From an uncultured Salinisphaerales bacterium (GTDB taxonomy: Bacteria; Pseudomonadota; Gammaproteobacteria; Nevskiales; CAJXLF01): 64,000 bases of DNA. The number at the start of each line of letters is the position of its first letter. Position 1 is the stretch's first letter. The stretch is taken from contig CAJXLF010000001.1 of NCBI GenBank assembly GCA_913055805.1, forward strand, positions 146,761 to 210,760, given 5' to 3'. The translations under genes were made by a program, and so were the position numbers. The notes beneath the pieces are model-generated. The model was not told the origin of the DNA, made no database searches, and saw nothing but the letters and a program-made list of their open reading frames with translations. Of this stretch, positions 4,547 to 32,671 are shown piece by piece.

Positions 4547-5089
4547 ATGAAGCATGGCCGGTTGCTGTTGCACCTCGGTGCCGTGGTTCTGGGCATGTTT
4601 GCTTTCGGTTTCGCCATGGTGCCGCTGTACGATGTGATCTGCGATATCACGGGTCTCAACGGTCGCAGCAGCACGGTGACCGAGCAGGCCAAAGTGGTTA
4701 ATGAAGTCGTGGACGCGAATCGCGTGATCACGGTGGAATTCACGACCACGGTGAATGGCGGCAGCGACTGGACGTTTGCCTCCGAACAGCGACAGGTGGA
4801 AGTGCATCCGGGCGAACTGACCCTGGTGTATTTCAATGCCAGAAACCTGCAGTCGCGGGACGTGGTGGGCCAGGCGGTGCCGAGTGTGTCGCCGGCGGCT
4901 GGCGCCAAGTACCTGCGCAAGACGGAATGCTTCTGTTTCGAGCAACAACAGTTCGAGGCAGACGAGGAAAAGCGGATGCCGGTACGGTTCGTTATCGATC
5001 CGGACCTGCCGGAACACATAGACCGGCTCACGCTGGCCTATACTTTTTTTGATGCCACCAACCTGGCATCACTTGGAGCAGCCCGATAA
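4547..5089 (+). CDS. ctaG: cytochrome c oxidase assembly protein CtaG/Cox11
   Basis: Cox11 family features (N-terminal TM, CFCF copper motif in [10 protein letters not shown]), 180 aa, located between coxA and coxC. Confidence 0.9.
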
Positions 5090-5112: not shown

Positions 5113-5988
5113 ATGTCACAGAACAGTACTGCGGACACCTATTACGTACCGGCGGGGAGCAGCTGGCCATTCCTGATGACGATCGCGCTGGTGATCTTCG
5201 TCTCCGGGTTCGGTCACATGCTCAACGAAGATATGAGCTTTGGCCGTATCGCCTTCTTCACGGGCCTCGGCTTTATCATCGTCATGACCTTTGTATGGTT
5301 GCGTGGCGTGATTCACGAAAGCGAATCCGGCAAGTACAACATGCAGGTGGACCGCACTTACCGCTGGAGCATGGGCTGGTTCATCTTCTCCGAGGTGATG
5401 TTCTTCGGCGCCTTTTTCGGCGCACTGTTCTATGCCCGCATCCTGTCGGTGCCATGGGTAGCGGGCGCCGGTCCCGAACTCATGACCAACGAAGTGCTGT
5501 GGAAGGGTTTCGAGGCCGTGTGGCCCACCAACGGTCCGGCCGATATGGGCGGTGAGTTCAGCACCATTCCCGCCTGGGGCGTTCCGTTCCTCAACACCCT
5601 GATCCTGCTGACCTCCGGCGTGACCTGTACCTTCGCCCATCATGGCCTGAAGGAAGGCAATCATCGCAAGGCCACGATCTGGCTGGCGGCGACTGTGGCG
5701 CTGGGCTGCGGTTTCCTGTTCTTCCAGGCTGAAGAATATATCGAGGCCTACAGCCATCTGAACCTGACTCTGGAGTCAGGCATCTATGGTTCTACATTCT
5801 TCATGCTGACCGGTTTCCACGGCATGCATGTGACGCTGGGCACCATCATGCTCATCATCATCATGTTCCGTTGCGCCAAGGGGCATTTCACCGAAGACCG
5901 TCATTTCGGCTTCGAAGGTGTGGCCTGGTACTGGCACTTTGTGGACGTAGTCTGGATTGGCCTGTTTATCTTCGTATACGTCGTATAA
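5113..5988 (+). CDS. coxC: cytochrome c oxidase subunit III
   Basis: Subunit III signature regions (FFMLTGFHGMHVTLG, AWYWHFVDVVW), 291 aa. Confidence 0.93.
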   Translation: MSQNSTADTYYVPAGSSWPFLMTIALVIFVSGFGHMLNEDMSFGRIAFFTGLGFIIVMTFVWLRGVIHESESGKYNMQVDRTYRWSMGWFIFSEVMFFGAFFGALFYARILSVPWVAGAGPELMTNEVLWKGFEAVWPTNGPADMGGEFSTIPAWGVPFLNTLILLTSGVTCTFAHHGLKEGNHRKATIWLAATVALGCGFLFFQAEEYIEAYSHLNLTLESGIYGSTFFMLTGFHGMHVTLGTIMLIIIMFRCAKGHFTEDRHFGFEGVAWYWHFVDVVWIGLFIFVYVV

Positions 5989-6005
5989 ACACAAACGCAG
6001 ACAAC

Positions 6006-6034
6006 AAAAAGCCCGGCAATGCCGGGCTTTTTTA
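6006..6034. terminator. bidirectional rho-independent terminator between coxC and rlmJ
   Basis: AAAAAGCCCGGC-AAT-GCCGGGCTTTTTT: a perfect GC-rich stem flanked by an A-run and a T-run. The rlmJ stop codon lies in the T/A tract. Confidence 0.7.
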
Positions 6035-6868
6035 TTCTTGCGCCAGAATCCTGCAACGATGATACCCATTACTCCCGCTGGCGAGAGTGCTTGCCAGTAA
6101 AGGCAGGATCGTCTGCATCCTCGTCAGCAGCGTCCAGGGCGGATTGATAACGATCATGCCGGCAGCGGTCATGCCATGGCCCCGGCTATCCGCTGTCAGT
6201 CCCAGTTCAAAGAGCTGAATATCACGTATGCCACTGCCGATCAGGGCCTTTTCCATCTGGTGTATGCGTTCTCGTTCCACCACCGGGTACCAGAGTGCGT
6301 AGATACCGCCGGCGAATCTGCGGTGAGCAGTAATAAGGGCATTAACAACGGCAGCGTAGTCCGTCTTGAGTTCGTAAGAGGGGTCGATGAGCACCAGCCC
6401 GCGCCGTGAAAGCGGCGGCAACAGGCGGGTGAAGGTTTTCAGGCCATCTTCCTTCAGCACCTTGATACTACGCTGCCCGGCCATGTTCGCGGCCAGCAGC
6501 TCAAAGTCCCGGGGGTGCAGTTCGTACAGCCAGGCGCGGTCTTCCCGTCTCAGAAAATGGCGCGCAATGAGCGGGGAGCCGGGGTAATGCGCCAGACGTC
6601 CGGCGTTGTTGTACTGGCCAACGATAGACAGATAGCTTGCCAGTTCGGGCAGAGCCTGACCGAACAGCTTGCCGATACCGCTTTCATATTCGCGGGTTTT
6701 GCCGGACGGCTCTGAAGTCAGGGCGTAATAGCCCGCCCCGGCGTGAGTGTCGATATAGGTAAAGGGCTTATCCTTGCGTATCAGGTACTCAAGGATTTCG
6801 ACCAGGACGACATGTTTTATGACGTCGGCAAAATTGCCAGCGTGGAAAGAGTGGCGGTAGCTGAGCAA
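6032..6868 (-). CDS. rlmJ: 23S rRNA (adenine2030-N6)-methyltransferase
   Basis: N-terminus MLSYRHSFHAGNFADVIKH...DTHAGAGYY closely matches E. coli RlmJ (YhiR). Confidence 0.85.
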   Translation of the reverse strand: MLSYRHSFHAGNFADVIKHVVLVEILEYLIRKDKPFTYIDTHAGAGYYALTSEPSGKTREYESGIGKLFGQALPELASYLSIVGQYNNAGRLAHYPGSPLIARHFLRREDRAWLYELHPRDFELLAANMAGQRSIKVLKEDGLKTFTRLLPPLSRRGLVLIDPSYELKTDYAAVVNALITAHRRFAGGIYALWYPVVERERIHQMEKALIGSGIRDIQLFELGLTADSRGHGMTAAGMIVINPPWTLLTRMQTILPLLASTLASGSNGYHRCRILAQE

Positions 6869-26216: not shown

Positions 26217-26879
26217 ATGTCAACCAAGAGTTTTTTCCTGGAACAGTCGCTTTACGATTATCTCTGCAAGCAGAGTTTGCGTGAACCCGATGTGCTGCGC
26301 CGCTTGCGCGAGGAAACGGCGCAAAGCAGCATGGCGCGCATGCAGATTGCTCCCGAGCAGGGGCAGTTCATGCAATGGCTGATTCGACTGATGGGGGCAC
26401 GCCGTGGTATCGAAGTGGGTGTATTCACCGGTTATAGCAGCCTGTGTGCCGCGCTGGCCATGCCTGAGGACGGCTACCTGCTGGCCTGTGATGTTTCCGA
26501 GGCCTGGACTGATGTGGCAAGGCGATATTGGGTGCAGGCTGGCGTGGCCGAGAAGATCGAGCTGCGTCTGGCGCCGGCCACCCGCACGCTGGATACCGAA
26601 CTGGGTACGGGTCTGGCCGGCAGTTATGACTACGCCTTCATTGATGCCGACAAAACCAATTACATCGCCTATTACGAGCGCTGTCTTGAATTACTCAGGC
26701 CCGGTGGCGTCATCCTGGTAGACAATGTCCTGTGGTCCGGTGCGGTGGCAGATGCGGCGAATCAGGAAGAAGACACCGTGGCCTTGCGTGCCTTCAATGA
26801 ATATCTGCACGGCGATGAACGCATAGACCTGAGCATGCTGCCGCTGGCGGACGGGCTCAGTCTCTGTCGTAAACGGTAG
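26217..26879 (+). CDS. class I SAM-dependent O-methyltransferase (caffeoyl-CoA OMT family 3)
   Basis: IEVGVFTGYSSL SAM-binding motif and DFAFIDADKTNY. ATG 26217 is 6 nt after GGGAAG; ATG 26211 is also possible. Confidence 0.8.
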   Translation: MSTKSFFLEQSLYDYLCKQSLREPDVLRRLREETAQSSMARMQIAPEQGQFMQWLIRLMGARRGIEVGVFTGYSSLCAALAMPEDGYLLACDVSEAWTDVARRYWVQAGVAEKIELRLAPATRTLDTELGTGLAGSYDYAFIDADKTNYIAYYERCLELLRPGGVILVDNVLWSGAVADAANQEEDTVALRAFNEYLHGDERIDLSMLPLADGLSLCRKR

Positions 26880-26890
26880 CTGCGGACGGA

Positions 26891-27328
26891 CTACAGCAGC
26901 TTTCGCAGGCGTCGGGCGTCTGCTTCGAATTGTGCCATGTCCGGTTTATGCAAAAAGCGGGTGGCGATACGCCCCATAAAGCGCAGATTGTCACGGCCGG
27001 TACGGGGAATCAGGTGCAGATGTACGTGCGGCACATGTTGCCAGGCAGCCTTGCCGTCGTTGATCAGCCAGTTGATATCCGTGCCTTCAGGATAGAGTTC
27101 GCGCATGGCGCGGGCGATGCGATTACCGGTTTCCATCAGCTGGCCACGCGTGGATTCGTCCAGTTGTGTCACCAGTGGATGGTGATCACGTGGAATTACC
27201 AGAACATGGCCCGGGCGCAGCGGGAAGATATCCATGAAGGCCACGACCGGCCCCTTCTCAATCACCCAGGCGGCAGGTGCCTTGCCGGCCAGTATCTGGC
27301 AGAAAATGCAGTTATTGTTTTGATCCAC
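26891..27328 (-). CDS. HIT family protein
   Basis: CIFCQI N-terminus and histidine triad HVHLHLIPR. The only available start is GTG 27326-27328, which lies inside the CACAGAT repeat arm. Confidence 0.8.
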   Translation of the reverse strand: MDQNNNCIFCQILAGKAPAAWVIEKGPVVAFMDIFPLRPGHVLVIPRDHHPLVTQLDESTRGQLMETGNRIARAMRELYPEGTDINWLINDGKAAWQHVPHVHLHLIPRTGRDNLRFMGRIATRFLHKPDMAQFEADARRLRKLL

Positions 27329-27350
27329 AGATTTCCCGGATTAAACAGAT
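27323..27350. repeat. solo, degenerate copy of the 28-bp CACAGATTW-triplet arm
   Basis: ATCCACAGATTTCCCGGATTAAACAGAT: 25/28 match to the arm at 28987-29014. No inverted partner found nearby. Confidence 0.6.
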
Positions 27351-27400
27351 GGAGAAGCTGAGATCATAACAGCAGAACAATCGTTGCCCATGCTGAAGAT

Positions 27401-27862
27401 CTAGAAAATACCCGCTTCCAGACCCGCGGCCAGTGTGAGGCCCAGTTCCCGGCAGGCCTGCAAATGTTCATCGGTCACTTCACCCTTGGCAATGAGGGCT
27501 TCATGAACTTCCACGAAGGGGTAGCCATTGGCAATGCGCTGAATGGCGTTGACCGCACCGCTGCCGTCGTTTTCGGCACTGATGAAGATGGCATAGGGCA
27601 GGGCCTGTAATTCACCCTCGACTTCATAATAAGTACGGTCGAGGAAGTCCTTCATCATGCCGCTCATATAACCGAAGTTTTCCGGCGTTCCCAGCAGCAG
27701 GCCATCGGCCCAGCGCAGGTCGTCGGGGCCTGCTTCGGGCGCTTGCAGATAGCGTACTTCAACTTCCGTCACTTCCTTGTCCTGCGCACCTTTCAGCACA
27801 GCTTCGGCAAGCTTTTGCGTGTTGCCTGTCTTGGAGTGGTAGACGATCAGCAGGTGTTTCAT
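27401..27862 (-). CDS. flavodoxin-like fold family protein
   Basis: MKHLLIVYHSKTGNTQKLAE is a flavodoxin/WrbA-type FMN-binding N-terminus; 153 aa. Confidence 0.7.
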   Translation of the reverse strand: MKHLLIVYHSKTGNTQKLAEAVLKGAQDKEVTEVEVRYLQAPEAGPDDLRWADGLLLGTPENFGYMSGMMKDFLDRTYYEVEGELQALPYAIFISAENDGSGAVNAIQRIANGYPFVEVHEALIAKGEVTDEHLQACRELGLTLAAGLEAGIF

Positions 27863-27966
27863 GGGCGTTAGCTTAACAGGCGAGATCTTAATGCCGGTCC
27901 CTGTGCCAGGTTGAGTGCTAGCTGCGGCACTCAGATGTTGTATAAGAATGCCCTGAAGATGCTGGG

Positions 27967-28059
27967 CGAGTCAGTTCAGGGGGCGTTCGGCGTTGGAAGA
28001 CCGAGGTTGTTCCAAAGGGCAGCAGTCGCTTCCGCCTTGTTCAGAGTGTAGATGTGTAG
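27967..28059 (-). pseudogene. orphan duplicate of the last 29 codons plus stop of metF
   Basis: 89/93 nt identical to 28115-28207. Translates to the same LHIYTLNKAEATAALWNNLGLPTPNAP-stop. No start codon or upstream metF sequence. Confidence 0.8.
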
Positions 28060-28123
28060 GCTGAAACTGCGAGTCCATACCGAGGGGCCCCGCTTGCGGG
28101 GATCGGTATTGAGACGAGTCAGT

Positions 28124-28975
28124 TCAAGGGGCGTTCGGCGTTGGAAGACCGAGGTTGTTCCAAAGGGCAGCAGTCGCTTCCGCCTTGTTTAATGTGTAGA
28201 TGTGTAGCCCCGGCGCGCCCCCATCCAGCAGGCGCTCACAAAGCTCAGTGACCACGTCTTCGCCGAAGGTACGGATGGATTCCAGATCGTGGTCCCAGGC
28301 CTCCAGGCGTTTGCGTATCCAGGCCGGGATTTCGGCGCCGCAAACATCGGAAAAACGTGCCAGTTGCCGGTAGTTGGTAATCGGCATGATGCCGGGCACA
28401 ACGGGAATCTCAATGCCGCGATCCGTGATTTCATCCATGAAGCGGAAATAGGCATCAGCATTGTAGAAATACTGGGTGATGGCCGAGTCTGCGCCGGCCT
28501 TGACCTTGCGTTCGAAGGCGTCGAGGTCGGCCTGCGGGCTGGCGGATTCAGGGTGGTGCTCCGGATAGGCGGCCACTTCCAGATGGAAGTAGTCGCCGGT
28601 TTCGGCACGGATGAATTCCACCAGTTCGTTGGCAAAGCGCAGTTCACCCACTGCGGTCTGACCTTCCAGTACGTCACCGCGCAGGGTGACCAGGCGCTTG
28701 ATGCCGGCTTCGCGGTAGCGTTGCAGCAGTTCGCGAATGCCGTCACGGCTGGAGTCGATGCAGGAAATATGCGGCGCGGCGTCGATGCCGGTTTGCTGCA
28801 AGGTTTCCTGCACAGTCTCGAAAGTGCCGTCGCGGGTGGTGCCGCCGGCGCCGAAGGTCACCGAGAAGAACGCCGGTCCCAGCGCGGCCAGTTGCGGACG
28901 GGCTTCGCGCAGCGATTCCAGCGCCTTGTCGGTGCGCGGCGGGAACAGCTCCAGGCTGTAGGTGCGATGCTTCAT
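28124..28975 (-). CDS. metF: 5,10-methylenetetrahydrofolate reductase
   Basis: YSLELFPPRT N-terminus and MetF family sequence, 283 aa. Confidence 0.93.
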   Translation of the reverse strand: MKHRTYSLELFPPRTDKALESLREARPQLAALGPAFFSVTFGAGGTTRDGTFETVQETLQQTGIDAAPHISCIDSSRDGIRELLQRYREAGIKRLVTLRGDVLEGQTAVGELRFANELVEFIRAETGDYFHLEVAAYPEHHPESASPQADLDAFERKVKAGADSAITQYFYNADAYFRFMDEITDRGIEIPVVPGIMPITNYRQLARFSDVCGAEIPAWIRKRLEAWDHDLESIRTFGEDVVTELCERLLDGGAPGLHIYTLNKAEATAALWNNLGLPTPNAP

Positions 28976-28986
28976 TTATGTACTAC

Positions 28987-29179
28987 ATCCACAGATTTCA
29001 CAGATTACACAGATAGGGTTTTGAAGATCTGCTTAATACTTGTCATCCCCGCGACTTGTACGGCTCTCCCCGCCAAAGCGGGGACGGGAATCCAGTGTGT
29101 CATGTTTCTGGATTCCGGATAGTCGCTATGCGACTTCCGGAATGACATGAAATCTGCGCAATCTGTGTAATCTGTGGAT
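28987..29179. repeat. 193-bp inverted-repeat element: 28-bp CACAGATTW-triplet arms around a nested palindromic (REP/MITE-like) core
   Basis: Left arm ATCCACAGATTTCACAGATTACACAGAT (28987-29014). Reverse complement of the right arm (29152-29179) is ATCCACAGATTACACAGATTGCGCAGAT. The core holds hairpins TCCCCGC-CAAA-GCGGGGA, GGAATCCAG-N12-CTGGATTCC and ATTCCGGATAGTCGC-TAT-GCGACTTCCGGAAT. Confidence 0.8.
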
Positions 29180-29185
29180 TAATTC

Positions 29186-30601
<1,416 letters not shown>

Positions 30602-30620
30602 AATATTTACCTCATTAGTC

Positions 30621-30702
30621 ATCCACAGATTACACAGATGTCACAGATTATTTCGTGACTGGCCAGGCGCGTTTATCTGTGTAATCCGTGAAATCCGTGG
30701 AT
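30621..30702. repeat. 82-bp inverted-repeat element with the same CACAGATTW-triplet arms
   Basis: Left arm ATCCACAGATTACACAGATGTCACAGAT (30621-30648). Reverse complement of the right arm (30675-30702) is ATCCACGGATTTCACGGATTACACAGAT. 26-nt spacer. Confidence 0.8.
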
Positions 30703-30712
30703 CGTCCTGTTG

Positions 30713-31927
30713 CTATTTGGCGTCAGCCTTGAGAGCCTCGGCCTTGTCGGTTTTCTCCCAGGAGAAACCTTCAAATTCATGCACCTTGCCGGTTTCGGCG
30801 CAGGTGTATTTGATTTTTTCCGGCTTACGGCCGAAGTGGCCGTAGGCGGCGGTGGGCTGGTAGATAGGATGGATCAGGTCCAGCATTTCGATGATGCCCC
30901 AGGGGCGCAGATCAAAATGCTTGCGTACCAGTTTTTCCAGTTTTTCTTCGGCGATCTTGCCAGTGCCGAAGGTATCGACCATGACTGATGTCGGCTCGGC
31001 CACGCCAATGGCATAACTGATCTGCACTTCACAGCGTTTGGCCAGACCCGCGGCAACGATGTTCTTGGCCACATAACGGGCGGCGTAAGCAGCCGAGCGG
31101 TCGACCTTGGACGGATCCTTGCCGGAGAAGGCGCCGCCGCCATGACGGGCATAACCACCGTAGGTGTCGACAATGATCTTGCGTCCGGTCAGGCCGGCAT
31201 CGCCCAGCGGGCCGCCGGTCACGAAGCGACCGGTGGGGTTGATGTGGTACTTGGTGCCCTTGTGCAGCAGTTTGGCGGGCAGGATGGGTTTTATGATTTC
31301 TTCCATCACTGCTTCGCGCAGGTCCTTGGTCTTGATGGCATCGTCGTGCTGGGTGGAAAGCACCACGGCGTCAATGGCCACTGGCTTGCTGTTTTCATAA
31401 CGCAGGCTGACCTGACTCTTGGCGTCCGGACGCAGCCACTTGAGCTTGCTGCGGCGCAGCTTGGCCTGTTTTTCCACCAGGCGATGCGCGTACTGGATCG
31501 GCGCCGGCATCAGTGCGGTGGTTTCGTCGCAGGCGAAGCCGAACATCAGGCCCTGGTCGCCGGCGCCCATCTTCTTGCGGTCTTTCTTGCTGCGGTCCAC
31601 GCCACGGTTGATGTCCATGGACTGCTCGCCCAGCGCGTTAACAATCGCGCAGGTCTCGGCATCGAAGCCGATATCCGATGAGGTGTAGCCGATCTTTTCG
31701 ATCACATCACGCATGATGCGTTCGGCATTGATATGCACACCCTTGGCGACCTTGATTTCACCGGCCACCAGGGCGATACCGGTCTTGGTCAGGGTTTCGC
31801 AGGCCACGCGGGCGTGCTCGTCCTGGGCCAGGTAGGCATCCAGAATGGCGTCCGAAATCTGGTCGCAGATCTTGTCCGGATGGCCTTCGGAGACCGATTC
31901 AGAAGTAAAGACGTAGTCCTTGAGCAT
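30713..31927 (-). CDS. metK: S-adenosylmethionine synthetase
   Basis: [14 protein letters not shown]-terminus, [26 protein letters not shown]; 404 aa with a C-terminal extension. Confidence 0.95.
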
Positions 31928-31998
31928 GTACCAACCCTCTCGGTAAATACCGGTAACTCGGAAAATCGCAATATCTATATATACGGATAAGCGGATGA

Positions 31999-32027
31999 AT
32001 TTTACCCTGCTTTGGTATCACTGTCGA
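31999..32027 (-). promoter_or_regulatory. putative sigma-70 promoter of metK
   Basis: On the minus strand: TCGACA (32027-32022), 17 nt, TAAAAT (32004-31999). About 70 nt upstream of the metK ATG. Confidence 0.3.
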
Positions 32028-32110
32028 CTATGCGATGCATGCCCGGGCAGGGGTTGTAGAATAGCAGTCTGAATGACCGCCTGTTGTATTCCTGAACTTC
32101 GAGACGAACC

Positions 32111-32671
32111 ATGGTATTGACTCCCTCCAATATGTTGCCAATCGGCACTTCTGCGCCGGATTTTTCATTGCCGGATACCGTAAGCGGCAAGACGTTCAAC
32201 CTGGCTGAGCTGGCCACTGGCAAGGCTACCGTCATCATGTTCATCTGCAATCATTGCCCTTATGTGAAACACGTTAATGACGAACTGGTACGCCTGGCCA
32301 GGGATTACCAGCCACGGGGTGTCGGTTTTATCGCCATCAGTGCCAATGACGTCGACAACTATCCGGACGATTCGCCGGAAAAGATGAAGCAACTGGCCGG
32401 CGAGCTGGGCTATACCTTCCCCTATCTCTATGACGAAAGCCAGACTGTTGCGCGCGCCTACGATGCAGCCTGCACTCCCGATTTTTTTGTGTTCGATGCA
32501 GAGCGCAAGCTGGCCTATCGCGGTCGCTTGGACGGTTCCACGCCGGGGAATGCTCTGCCCGTCACGGGGGCCGAGCTACGTGCAGCGCTGGATGCATTGT
32601 TGCGCGGCGAACTGCCGGATTCGGAGCAGAATCCCAGTGTGGGCTGCAACATCAAGTGGAAAGCAGCCTAA
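32111..32671 (+). CDS. thioredoxin-fold (AhpC/TSA-redoxin like) protein
   Basis: ATVIMFICNHCPYVKH redox motif in a redoxin-sized 186-aa protein. Confidence 0.7.
   Translation: MVLTPSNMLPIGTSAPDFSLPDTVSGKTFNLAELATGKATVIMFICNHCPYVKHVNDELVRLARDYQPRGVGFIAISANDVDNYPDDSPEKMKQLAGELGYTFPYLYDESQTVARAYDAACTPDFFVFDAERKLAYRGRLDGSTPGNALPVTGAELRAALDALLRGELPDSEQNPSVGCNIKWKAA

Follow-up and report, generated by a model that had tools for sequence, protein, structure and literature searches.

REP and REPIN sequences are species-specific short palindromes that are rich in GC and carry a GTAG or CGTC tag, and the RAYT gene (IS200/IS605-type, Y1) is flanked by such repeats. The STRR heptamers of cyanobacteria are tandem words of 7-9 nt found between genes, where small dispersed repeats can also be nested in one another. 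The intervening sequences (IVS) of 23S rRNA are bounded by inverted repeats and excised by RNase III. In a report on Coxiella burnetii (PMC4990558), the IVS is described as selfish; it is 428 nt long, lies within helix 45 of the precursor of 23S rRNA and carries an S23p open reading frame (ORF). Finally, the NTS repeat of Neisseria (CGTCATTCCCGCGMAVGCGGGAATCYRG, which includes dRS3) and SRM, the wider class of Ssn-related hairpin repeats across phyla, flank ssn, a gene for a small GIY-YIG nuclease (cd10448) that cuts single-stranded DNA beside the repeat; the NTS-ssn-NTS layout resembles an insertion sequence, 81% of the genomes rich in the repeat encode Ssn, and many copies of the repeat occur without the gene (Chenal et al. 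2025, PMC11893778). Here we compare with these systems a palindromic element, E1 (28987-29179, 193 bp, minus strand), which lies in the spacer between ahcY and metF in a 64,000-nt stretch of DNA (the window) from an uncultured Salinisphaerales bacterium. We lean towards the reading that E1 is selfish non-coding DNA and consists of two nested, gene-less members of two nuclease-associated hairpin-repeat families. What is new here is the link of one of these families to a gene: small GxxExxY genes are statistically associated with inverted arrays of short words (about 10-fold), including arrays of CACAGATT, the word of which the arms of E1 are made.

The arms of E1 are 28 nt long, complementary to each other at 25 of 28 positions, and enclose 137 nt. 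Each arm consists of ATC followed by three tandem 9-nt units, that is, CACAGATT plus one variable base (N-CACAGATT). The arm adjoining metF (28987..29014, minus strand) is the 3' arm on the transcribed strand and reads ATC plus three words CACAGATT-T/A; the arm adjoining ahcY (29152..29179, minus strand) is the 5' arm. Both transition mismatches are G:U pairs on the sense strand. The enclosed nest contains the hairpins TGTCATCC...GGAATGACA, GGAATCCAG-N12-CTGGATTCC, TCCCCGC-CAAA-GCGGGGA and ATTCCGGA(T)AGTCGC-TAT-GCGACTTCCGGAAT. The sequence-only reading, made earlier by a model on this stretch of DNA, had described these arms with their sense-strand G:U positions and the nested hairpins, and all of them are present. 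It had also placed E1 correctly at 6 nt from the ahcY stop, while the distance to the metF ATG has to be corrected from 12 to 11 nt. Folded on the transcribed (minus) strand, E1 reaches -96.7 kcal/mol (z = -8.8 against 200 shuffles). A second and shorter element of the same arm family, E2 (30621..30702, 82 bp, minus strand), is found in the metK-ahcY spacer.

The only gene that we found between a pair of such arms is GxxExxY (TIGR04256, PF13366), which belongs to the PD-(D/E)XK superfamily and is not a known transposase. Among the loci fetched by DNA pattern alone, a frameshifted GxxExxY pseudogene lies exactly between two CACAGATT arms in a member of the Pyrinomonadaceae (L045), and an intact GxxExxY gene adjoins an arm cluster in Paludibacter (L018). 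A further 20 metagenome loci were fetched by similarity to the GxxExxY protein alone, and in these the words of the CRCRRAK class were counted up to 120 nt from either end of the gene. Upstream of the 20 genes there are 29 forward words where 2.8 are expected (P = 5e-20), and downstream there are 35 reverse words for an expectation of 2.9 (P = 8e-26), whereas words in the wrong orientation number only 2 and 1. At least two words stand on one side of the gene in 16 of the 20 loci. The words vary from locus to locus (CGCAGAG, CACAGAG, CACGAAG, CACAAAG), and others such as CGAATT, which fall outside the counted class, flank GxxExxY genes as well. Two of the 20 loci use CACAGATT itself. In one of them (L178) the gene is disrupted, and in the other (L181) all that is left of it between the arms is a stretch of 40 codons at the start and a few codons at the end, so that L181 appears to be a cassette caught on its way to a gene-less hairpin. 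Note that an ungapped inverted-repeat score of the flanks exceeds the 99th percentile of shuffles at no more than 10 of the 19 loci, since the alignments are interrupted by transitions and by the free bases between words; the oriented word counts are the better statistic.

In isolate records, word repeats flank eight GxxExxY genes, with clear inverted arrays in three cases (L182, L184 and L185). Neighbours are annotated for six of the isolate genes, and each of the six has been inserted where the host genes on both sides point the same way. Among the settings are radA / GxxExxY / flavin adenine dinucleotide-dependent protein in Bacteroides finegoldii (L185), fabD / GxxExxY / fabG in Sphingomonas parapaucimobilis (L189) and ade / GxxExxY / mannose-1-phosphate guanylyltransferase in Bernardetia (L184); these three are operon-like co-oriented runs with spacers of about 50 nt or less, a layout which suggests that GxxExxY may be expressed by read-through.

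The type of word tracks the clade of the GxxExxY protein: words in -GAG go with one clade, words in -GAT(T) with the clade of L018, L178 and L182. The CACAGATT clade also has a member in Treponema saccharophilum (WP_040842287). As a test of the prediction that follows from this, those homologues that are nearest to the L018 protein (69-94% identity) were fetched by protein, and all nine lie among CACAGATT arrays; these nine loci (L190-L198) are, however, one orthologous site in Bacteroidota (epimerase / GxxExxY / UDP-glucose dehydrogenase) and do not represent nine independent events. We compared the arms of E1 and E2 with those around the GxxExxY genes in L045, L178, L181 and L190-L198 and found the features of the class in both: inverted arrays, 2-4 tandem CRCRRAK-type words of 8-9 nt, and C-CACAG as the outermost unit. 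The function of PF13366 is listed as 'Unknown', with clades that are mixed across bacterial divisions, a pattern of transfer that fits the spread of the words across phyla. A search of the PDB with the sequence of a GxxExxY protein gave no match, and in the literature library that could be searched 'GxxExxY' occurs in two papers only, both unrelated.

How widely is the arm family distributed? A scan for ATCCACRGATTNCACRGAT with one genome per species yielded at least 120 stretches, to be set against about 70 chance matches in the entire collection by our own estimate from the collection size. Among the matches listed are Acidobacteriota (many of them Pyrinomonadaceae), Verrucomicrobiota, Planctomycetota, Chloroflexota, Bacteroidota, Gemmatimonadota, Spirochaetota, Cyanobacteria, Desulfobacterota, Alpha- and Gammaproteobacteria and others. 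Viral contigs, too, have the arm pattern, in 30 stretches. Arm hairpins are known from at least ten phyla, where they stand between unrelated genes, and the cultured isolates that have them include Asticcacaulis, Persicobacter psychrovividus and Bacteroides finegoldii, where one hairpin separates serC from a downstream gene for an NAD(P)-dependent oxidoreductase (L160). The loci listed contain 75 inverted pairs with 2-4 words per arm and loops of 1 to 384 nt (median about 18 nt), and a second hairpin copy is present in about 40% of the 8-kb loci. Short-loop forms are the commonest state of the family, and many copies are no longer than 35-60 bp, their loops being 1-15 nt. The arms go with dozens of unrelated loops or with almost no loop at all; from one lineage to another the loops show no relation, and further word hairpins are often nested in the long ones. 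In 18 other loci the hairpins are covered by no Rfam family. In a literature search by string, within the library that could be searched, the 16-mers of the arms were unmatched, and 11-12-mers gave unrelated primers only.

Several loci show more elaborate arrangements of the words. In a metagenome-assembled genome (MAG) of the Gemmatimonadales (L081, 4237-6934) at least six hairpins stand head to tail, with cores of 118 nt repeated every ~266 bp. In a cyanobacterial MAG (L102, 1423-1650) a unit of 42 nt, made up of three words and GTCTGAAGGAGGG, is present in six direct copies, and Asticcacaulis sp. AC402 (L123, 2808-3352) has two near-identical copies of a three-layer palindrome, 266 bp apart. 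In L123, L010, L020 and L041, CACAGATT hairpins lie inside hairpins of other words (CACGAAC, CGGATTT, CACGAAG) or enclose them.

The nest inside the arms of E1 belongs, as far as we can judge, to another family. Inner unit A (29041..29097, plus strand), separated from the outer arm by 26 nt without a recognisable relative (29015..29040), is an NTS/SRM-like hairpin TGTCATCCCCGCG...GGGAATCCAGTG with an irregular and enlarged interior that includes TCCCCGC-CAAA-GCGGGGA. Inner unit B (29108..29147, minus strand) is the NTS/SRM-like hairpin TGTCATTCCGGAAGTCGCATAGCGACTATCCGGAATCCAG, convergent with unit A. The centre between them (29098..29107) is part of the 12-nt loop of GGAATCCAG-N12-CTGGATTCC and corresponds to the position of the ssn gene in full cassettes. 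Both units have the oriented flanks GTCATYCC and GGAATCCAG, which match the NTS repeat, and the relaxed flank pattern GTCAT[TC]CC...GGAATC[CT][AG]G has exactly two matches in the 64 kb, at 29042-29095 (plus) and 29108-29146 (minus).

A CACAGATT arm followed by a convergent NTS pair is also present in L016 (Prevotellaceae), whose core sequence, used as a literature query, led us to PMC11893778, and in L115 (Candidatus Leptofilum). An IMG/VR contig (L139, 40-290) has five tandem GTCATTCCCGCTTCGCCTT, an NTS, a truncated ssn-like GIY-YIG frame (MKTYYVYIMASK...LYIG) and a second, convergent NTS. Given the oriented flanks, the convergent layout and these parallels, the core is best read as a putative gene-less ssn-type cassette in the loop of the outer hairpin, and it would be a deviant member of the known NTS/SRM kind. 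Arms and core each recur independently elsewhere, in agreement with the idea, put forward from the letters alone, that E1 is a composite of two repeat families, and clearly E1 is a repeat and not a one-off sequence.

We propose the following course of events. The outer arms, inverted arrays of three 9-nt words, would be of the type that elsewhere brackets a small GxxExxY gene, in a cassette with the layout arm, 5-10 nt, ATG...stop, arm, which inserts between co-oriented host genes. The general claim, to which we give an even chance, is that hairpins of tandem 8-9-nt words (CACAGATT here, and CGCAGAG, CACGAAG, CGCAAAG and others elsewhere) are the recognition ends of bacteria-wide selfish mini-cassettes and that the encoded GxxExxY protein is a sequence-specific nuclease or DNA-binding protein that reads the words. 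By analogy with REP/RAYT and NTS/SRM/Ssn, the words may be recognition sites for GxxExxY. They would then be maintained because the protein recognises them, or because they are copied from a master, and not because the arms have to pair. Gene-less copies such as E1, E2 and most of those elsewhere would be decayed cassettes or copies made in trans. In E1, a convergent NTS/SRM-like pair without its gene would have inserted into the loop of the outer hairpin. The element would have arisen in an ancestor that this organism shares with the nearest relative sequenced. E1 is probably co-transcribed with metK-ahcY-metF, and a very stable stem-loop should then form 11 nt upstream of the metF start; if this alters the processing of the mRNA or the translation of metF, the change is predicted to be a side effect, and we infer that E1 has no selected role in the operon.

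Besides the single site behind the nine homologues of L018, a number of observations weigh against this proposal. There is no GxxExxY gene in the window, and the loci hold 3 GxxExxY genes in about 850 kb with about 75 hairpins, so that gene-less hairpins far outnumber genes. The replicons of Persicobacter psychrovividus have many hairpins and no detectable GxxExxY gene. The B. finegoldii gene has CACAGAGGA words on its flanks, whereas the gene-less hairpins there are built of CACAGATT; CACCACAGA is the end common to both. No nuclease activity or DNA binding is known for any GxxExxY protein. As for the core, the published SRM expression HGTCWYN(0-2)YYVSBRHN(0-5)WNVSBRGN(0-2)RNCYNB has 0 matches in the window, as has the NTS CGTCATTCCCGCGMAVGCGGGAATCYRG with up to 6 substitutions; a motif scan finds no small GIY-YIG (ssn) ORF in the window, and the fetched loci contain no intact GIY-YIG gene either. 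It could also be that the hairpins were there first and that the flanking arrays are simply places where small cassettes prefer to land.

The last point leads to the main rival explanation, which we consider possible and on the whole unlikely. According to it, the word hairpins are an independent REP-like family that is spread in some other way or kept by the host, e.g. as terminators, mRNA stabilisers or sites for nucleoid proteins, and their loops are landing sites for GxxExxY genes and NTS pairs alike. The excess of hairpins over genes and the Persicobacter replicons both speak for it, and NTS pairs inside loops in three phyla show that loops do attract other elements. The flanks of the hairpins, which tend to be A-rich upstream and T-rich downstream as around a terminator, speak for it as well. 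On the other hand, arrays stand tight against the start and the stop, correctly inverted, at nearly every GxxExxY gene examined, and the word type follows the clade of the protein. A role as terminators is also at odds with E1 and E2, which are not listed by a terminator scan and have no U-tract.

The flanks were seen in L004-L123 as an A-rich 5' side of the arms (about 40% A at -9 to -4), implying a T-rich side 3' of the partner. They resemble the flanks of bidirectional terminators, and E1 and E2 are without them.

The bases between the words argue against a host function that depends on the stem. The base between the words is A in about 60% and T in about 20% of cases, and it is complementary across the arms in 43% of cases compared to 41% expected (permutation p = 0.41). 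This lack of covariation between the arms at the free base indicates that the words, and not the stem, are under selection, with the reservation that the conservation of the words is partly imposed by the method of arm detection. Selection of this kind would speak for recognition of a specific sequence or for copies made from a master.

We also compared G:U mismatches across the family with the direction of the flanking genes (as called by a crude home-made scorer). In co-directional contexts the two classes number 8 and 7, and 18 and 23 under looser rules, i.e. there is no bias towards the sense strand. Selection on the arms at the RNA level was rejected for the lack of strand bias between these classes.

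Another possibility is that E1 and E2 are cis-regulatory RNAs of the S-adenosylmethionine (SAM) cycle operon, acting as RNase III sites, as stability elements of the cistrons or as a translational gate of metF, in place of an absent S-adenosylhomocysteine (SAH) riboswitch. We regard this as quite improbable. The genes around the two elements are all on the minus strand: metK (30713-31927), ahcY (29186 to ~30601), metF (28124-28975), a flavodoxin-like gene (27401-27862) and a HIT-family gene (26891-27328). The sole good promoter match of the region lies upstream of metK and no terminator is listed at E1 or E2, and from this we conclude that metK, ahcY and metF are probably one transcript. Note that the scan detects loops of 3-8 nt only; the U-tract of an intrinsic terminator is missing from the sense-strand flanks GTAGTACAT and GACTAATGAG, too. 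SAH riboswitches commonly precede ahcY in Beta- and Gammaproteobacteria. Here, Rfam detects none upstream of ahcY (30601-30720) or elsewhere in the window, which has 0 matches of any family at gathering score, and nothing relevant appears in 26800-32200 up to E = 10. Hairpins within a probable single transcript, the missing riboswitch, the very stable folds, the position of E1 only 11 nt from the metF ATG and the fact that all four transition mismatches of E1 and E2 are sense-strand G:U pairs would all suit such a role. On the other hand, the same hairpins stand between unrelated genes in at least ten phyla, and the family as a whole has neither a sense-strand G:U bias nor covariation at the free positions.

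The relatives of the locus bear on the same question. An identical locus is found on three JGI metagenome contigs, and the nearest MetF relatives carry the names Nevskiales and Salinisphaeraceae. In the closest syntenic relative (L154, MetF 83% identical), family hairpins are present in both the metK-ahcY and the ahcY-metF spacer, as a regulatory role would have it. Both consist of a variant word set (AACCGCAGATT...AATCTGCGGTT), and the second one is partly decayed. By contrast, no such hairpins occur in the same spacers of the relatives with 78-81% MetF identity, namely L155 and L156 (81%), L157 (79%) and L158 (78%), where the spacers of 12-159 nt are either empty or contain quite different palindromes. 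The comparison of this spacer between related species, which the sequence-only reading had proposed as a check, places the gain of E1 and E2, to judge by presence and absence, in a recent common ancestor of this organism and L154, and we conclude that E1 is no operon-specific regulator. Both spacers, ahcY-metF as well as metK-ahcY, are hot spots for the insertion of palindromes. In L158, unrelated palindromic elements that share ...CCCATCCATGGGG... motifs lie in the same spacers (4842-5000 and 5841-6086), and L155 has a GC hairpin at 4938-5000.

Could E1 be a classical MITE (miniature inverted-repeat transposable element), with terminal inverted repeats that are bound by a DDE transposase encoded elsewhere and with a target-site duplication? 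Inverted ends and a variable interior agree with such an element, and in some transposons multiple sub-terminal repeats serve as binding sites of the transposase. However, we saw no target-site duplication at E1, at E2 or at the listed copies (by eye), in line with what had been noted for E1 before, and where flanks match they are complementary and not direct. Many copies are only 35-60 bp long, with loops of 1-15 nt, and to the eye, the genes that separate or adjoin the hairpins are of the ordinary housekeeping type. We noticed no transposase or RAYT in the ORFs that lie between two hairpins, judging by eye from N-terminal translations and without a profile search. With neither a target-site duplication nor a transposase seen, we give very little credit to the reading of E1 as a classical MITE. 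The sequence-only reading had offered a MITE with an internally deleted derivative as one of its two explanations and recognised at 30621-30702 the arms of E1 with the core absent. In this form the explanation is not supported: the arms are indeed the same, but E2 is not E1 minus its core. Short loops are the commonest state of the family. The idea of deletion does apply to the arm family in general, which has ORF-bearing versions (GxxExxY) and deleted derivatives in L045, L178 and L181. A search for an autonomous element with the same termini had been advised; between arms we found GxxExxY genes and no transposase.

The weakest candidate, that the arms are a cluster of binding sites for a universal host protein such as DnaA (the outermost unit is often TTATCCACA, the DnaA-box consensus), was dropped as hardly credible, because TT, though the commonest dinucleotide before ATCCACA, precedes it in only 26% of the arms with CC and CG nearly as common, the copies of other lineages end differently (CACCACAG and AACCCACAG in Bacteroides and Persicobacter, AACCGCAG in L154), and the conserved part is CACAGATT and not the DnaA box.

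Within the window, a two-word pattern with up to 3 mismatches has 11 matches compared to 1.4 expected, a number that none of 100 shuffles reaches, and nine of the 11 matches fall at three sites: E1, E2 and a lone degraded arm. The arms of E2 (30621-30648 and 30675-30702) are complementary at 23 of 28 positions and enclose a loop of 26 nt. Both transition mismatches of E2 are, again, G:U pairs on the sense strand, its fold reaches -36.4 kcal/mol (z = -3.9), and it ends about 22 nt upstream of the ahcY start (gene callers place this start at the ATG of MSTPAEK). The word variant is common to the copies of a genome. The lone arm (27322..27350, minus strand) is 86% identical to the E1 arm and lies between the flavodoxin-like and the HIT gene. 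It overlaps the 5' end of the HIT ORF, and its GTGGAT provides the first possible in-frame GTG start, which is preceded by GGGAAA and from which the ORF reads MDQNNNCIFCQ....

Downstream of metF there is another repeat of a different kind. A direct repeat of 93 nt, 96% identical (27967-28059 and 28115-28207), duplicates the last ~81 nt of metF plus 12 nt downstream, and between the two copies lie 55 nt that include a hairpin rich in GC (CCGATCCCCGCAAGCGGGGCCCCTCGG). The arrangement has the appearance of a tandem duplication, or else of an insertion that made a very long duplication.

On its own, the locus is ordinary selfish DNA, and its interest lies in the link between the repeat family and the gene family. 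If this link holds, it accounts for conspicuous intergenic palindromes that are outside Rfam, warns annotators that such hairpins in operons are probably selfish DNA and not regulators, and might yield new sequence-specific nucleases, as the Ssn family did. If GxxExxY does read the words, this would be the first functional handle on PF13366, which is a large and widely transferred family, and it would explain why identical short words are found in intergenic DNA from Acidobacteriota to Bacteroides, including the Bacteroides of the gut.

How does E1 compare with the systems described before? Like the IVS of 23S rRNA, an arm cassette is small and selfish, sits inside a host transcript and has a single short ORF, the function of which is unknown. 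The host is rRNA in one case and operon spacers in the other, the ORF families differ, and excision at the RNA level is not suggested for the arm hairpins because they show no covariation. The STRR heptamers have a likeness in the cyanobacterial array of CACAGATT words in L102; to our knowledge, neither a link to a gene family nor an inverted-array architecture has been described for them.

The core of E1 (the comparison does not extend to the arms) is close to NTS/SRM in the 5' flank (T)GTCATYCC, the hairpin and the 3' end GGAATCCAG of its units, which form a convergent pair as around ssn. It differs in the enlarged and irregular interiors, in leaving the published motif unmatched and in having no ssn between the units or in the window.

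The arms, finally, resemble REP/RAYT. Both are short intergenic palindromes with many copies per genome and no target-site duplication, both accompany a small nuclease-type gene that is flanked by the repeats, and in both a variant is common to the copies of one genome (for the arms, two copies each in the window and in L154). The differences are that the arms are tandem words of 8-9 nt, AT-rich and starting with ATCCACAG, instead of a single GC-rich stem with a GTAG or CGTC tag, that the associated gene has a PD-(D/E)XK instead of an HUH/Y1 fold, and that one and the same word is found in many phyla, unlike REPs, each of which is confined to a species. Built of words, without a tag and with no Y1 or GIY-YIG gene noticed, the arms lack the defining features of both REP-RAYT and NTS-Ssn. 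If our reading is true, they would represent a third system of the same general kind, and E1 would be two such systems nested in one another.

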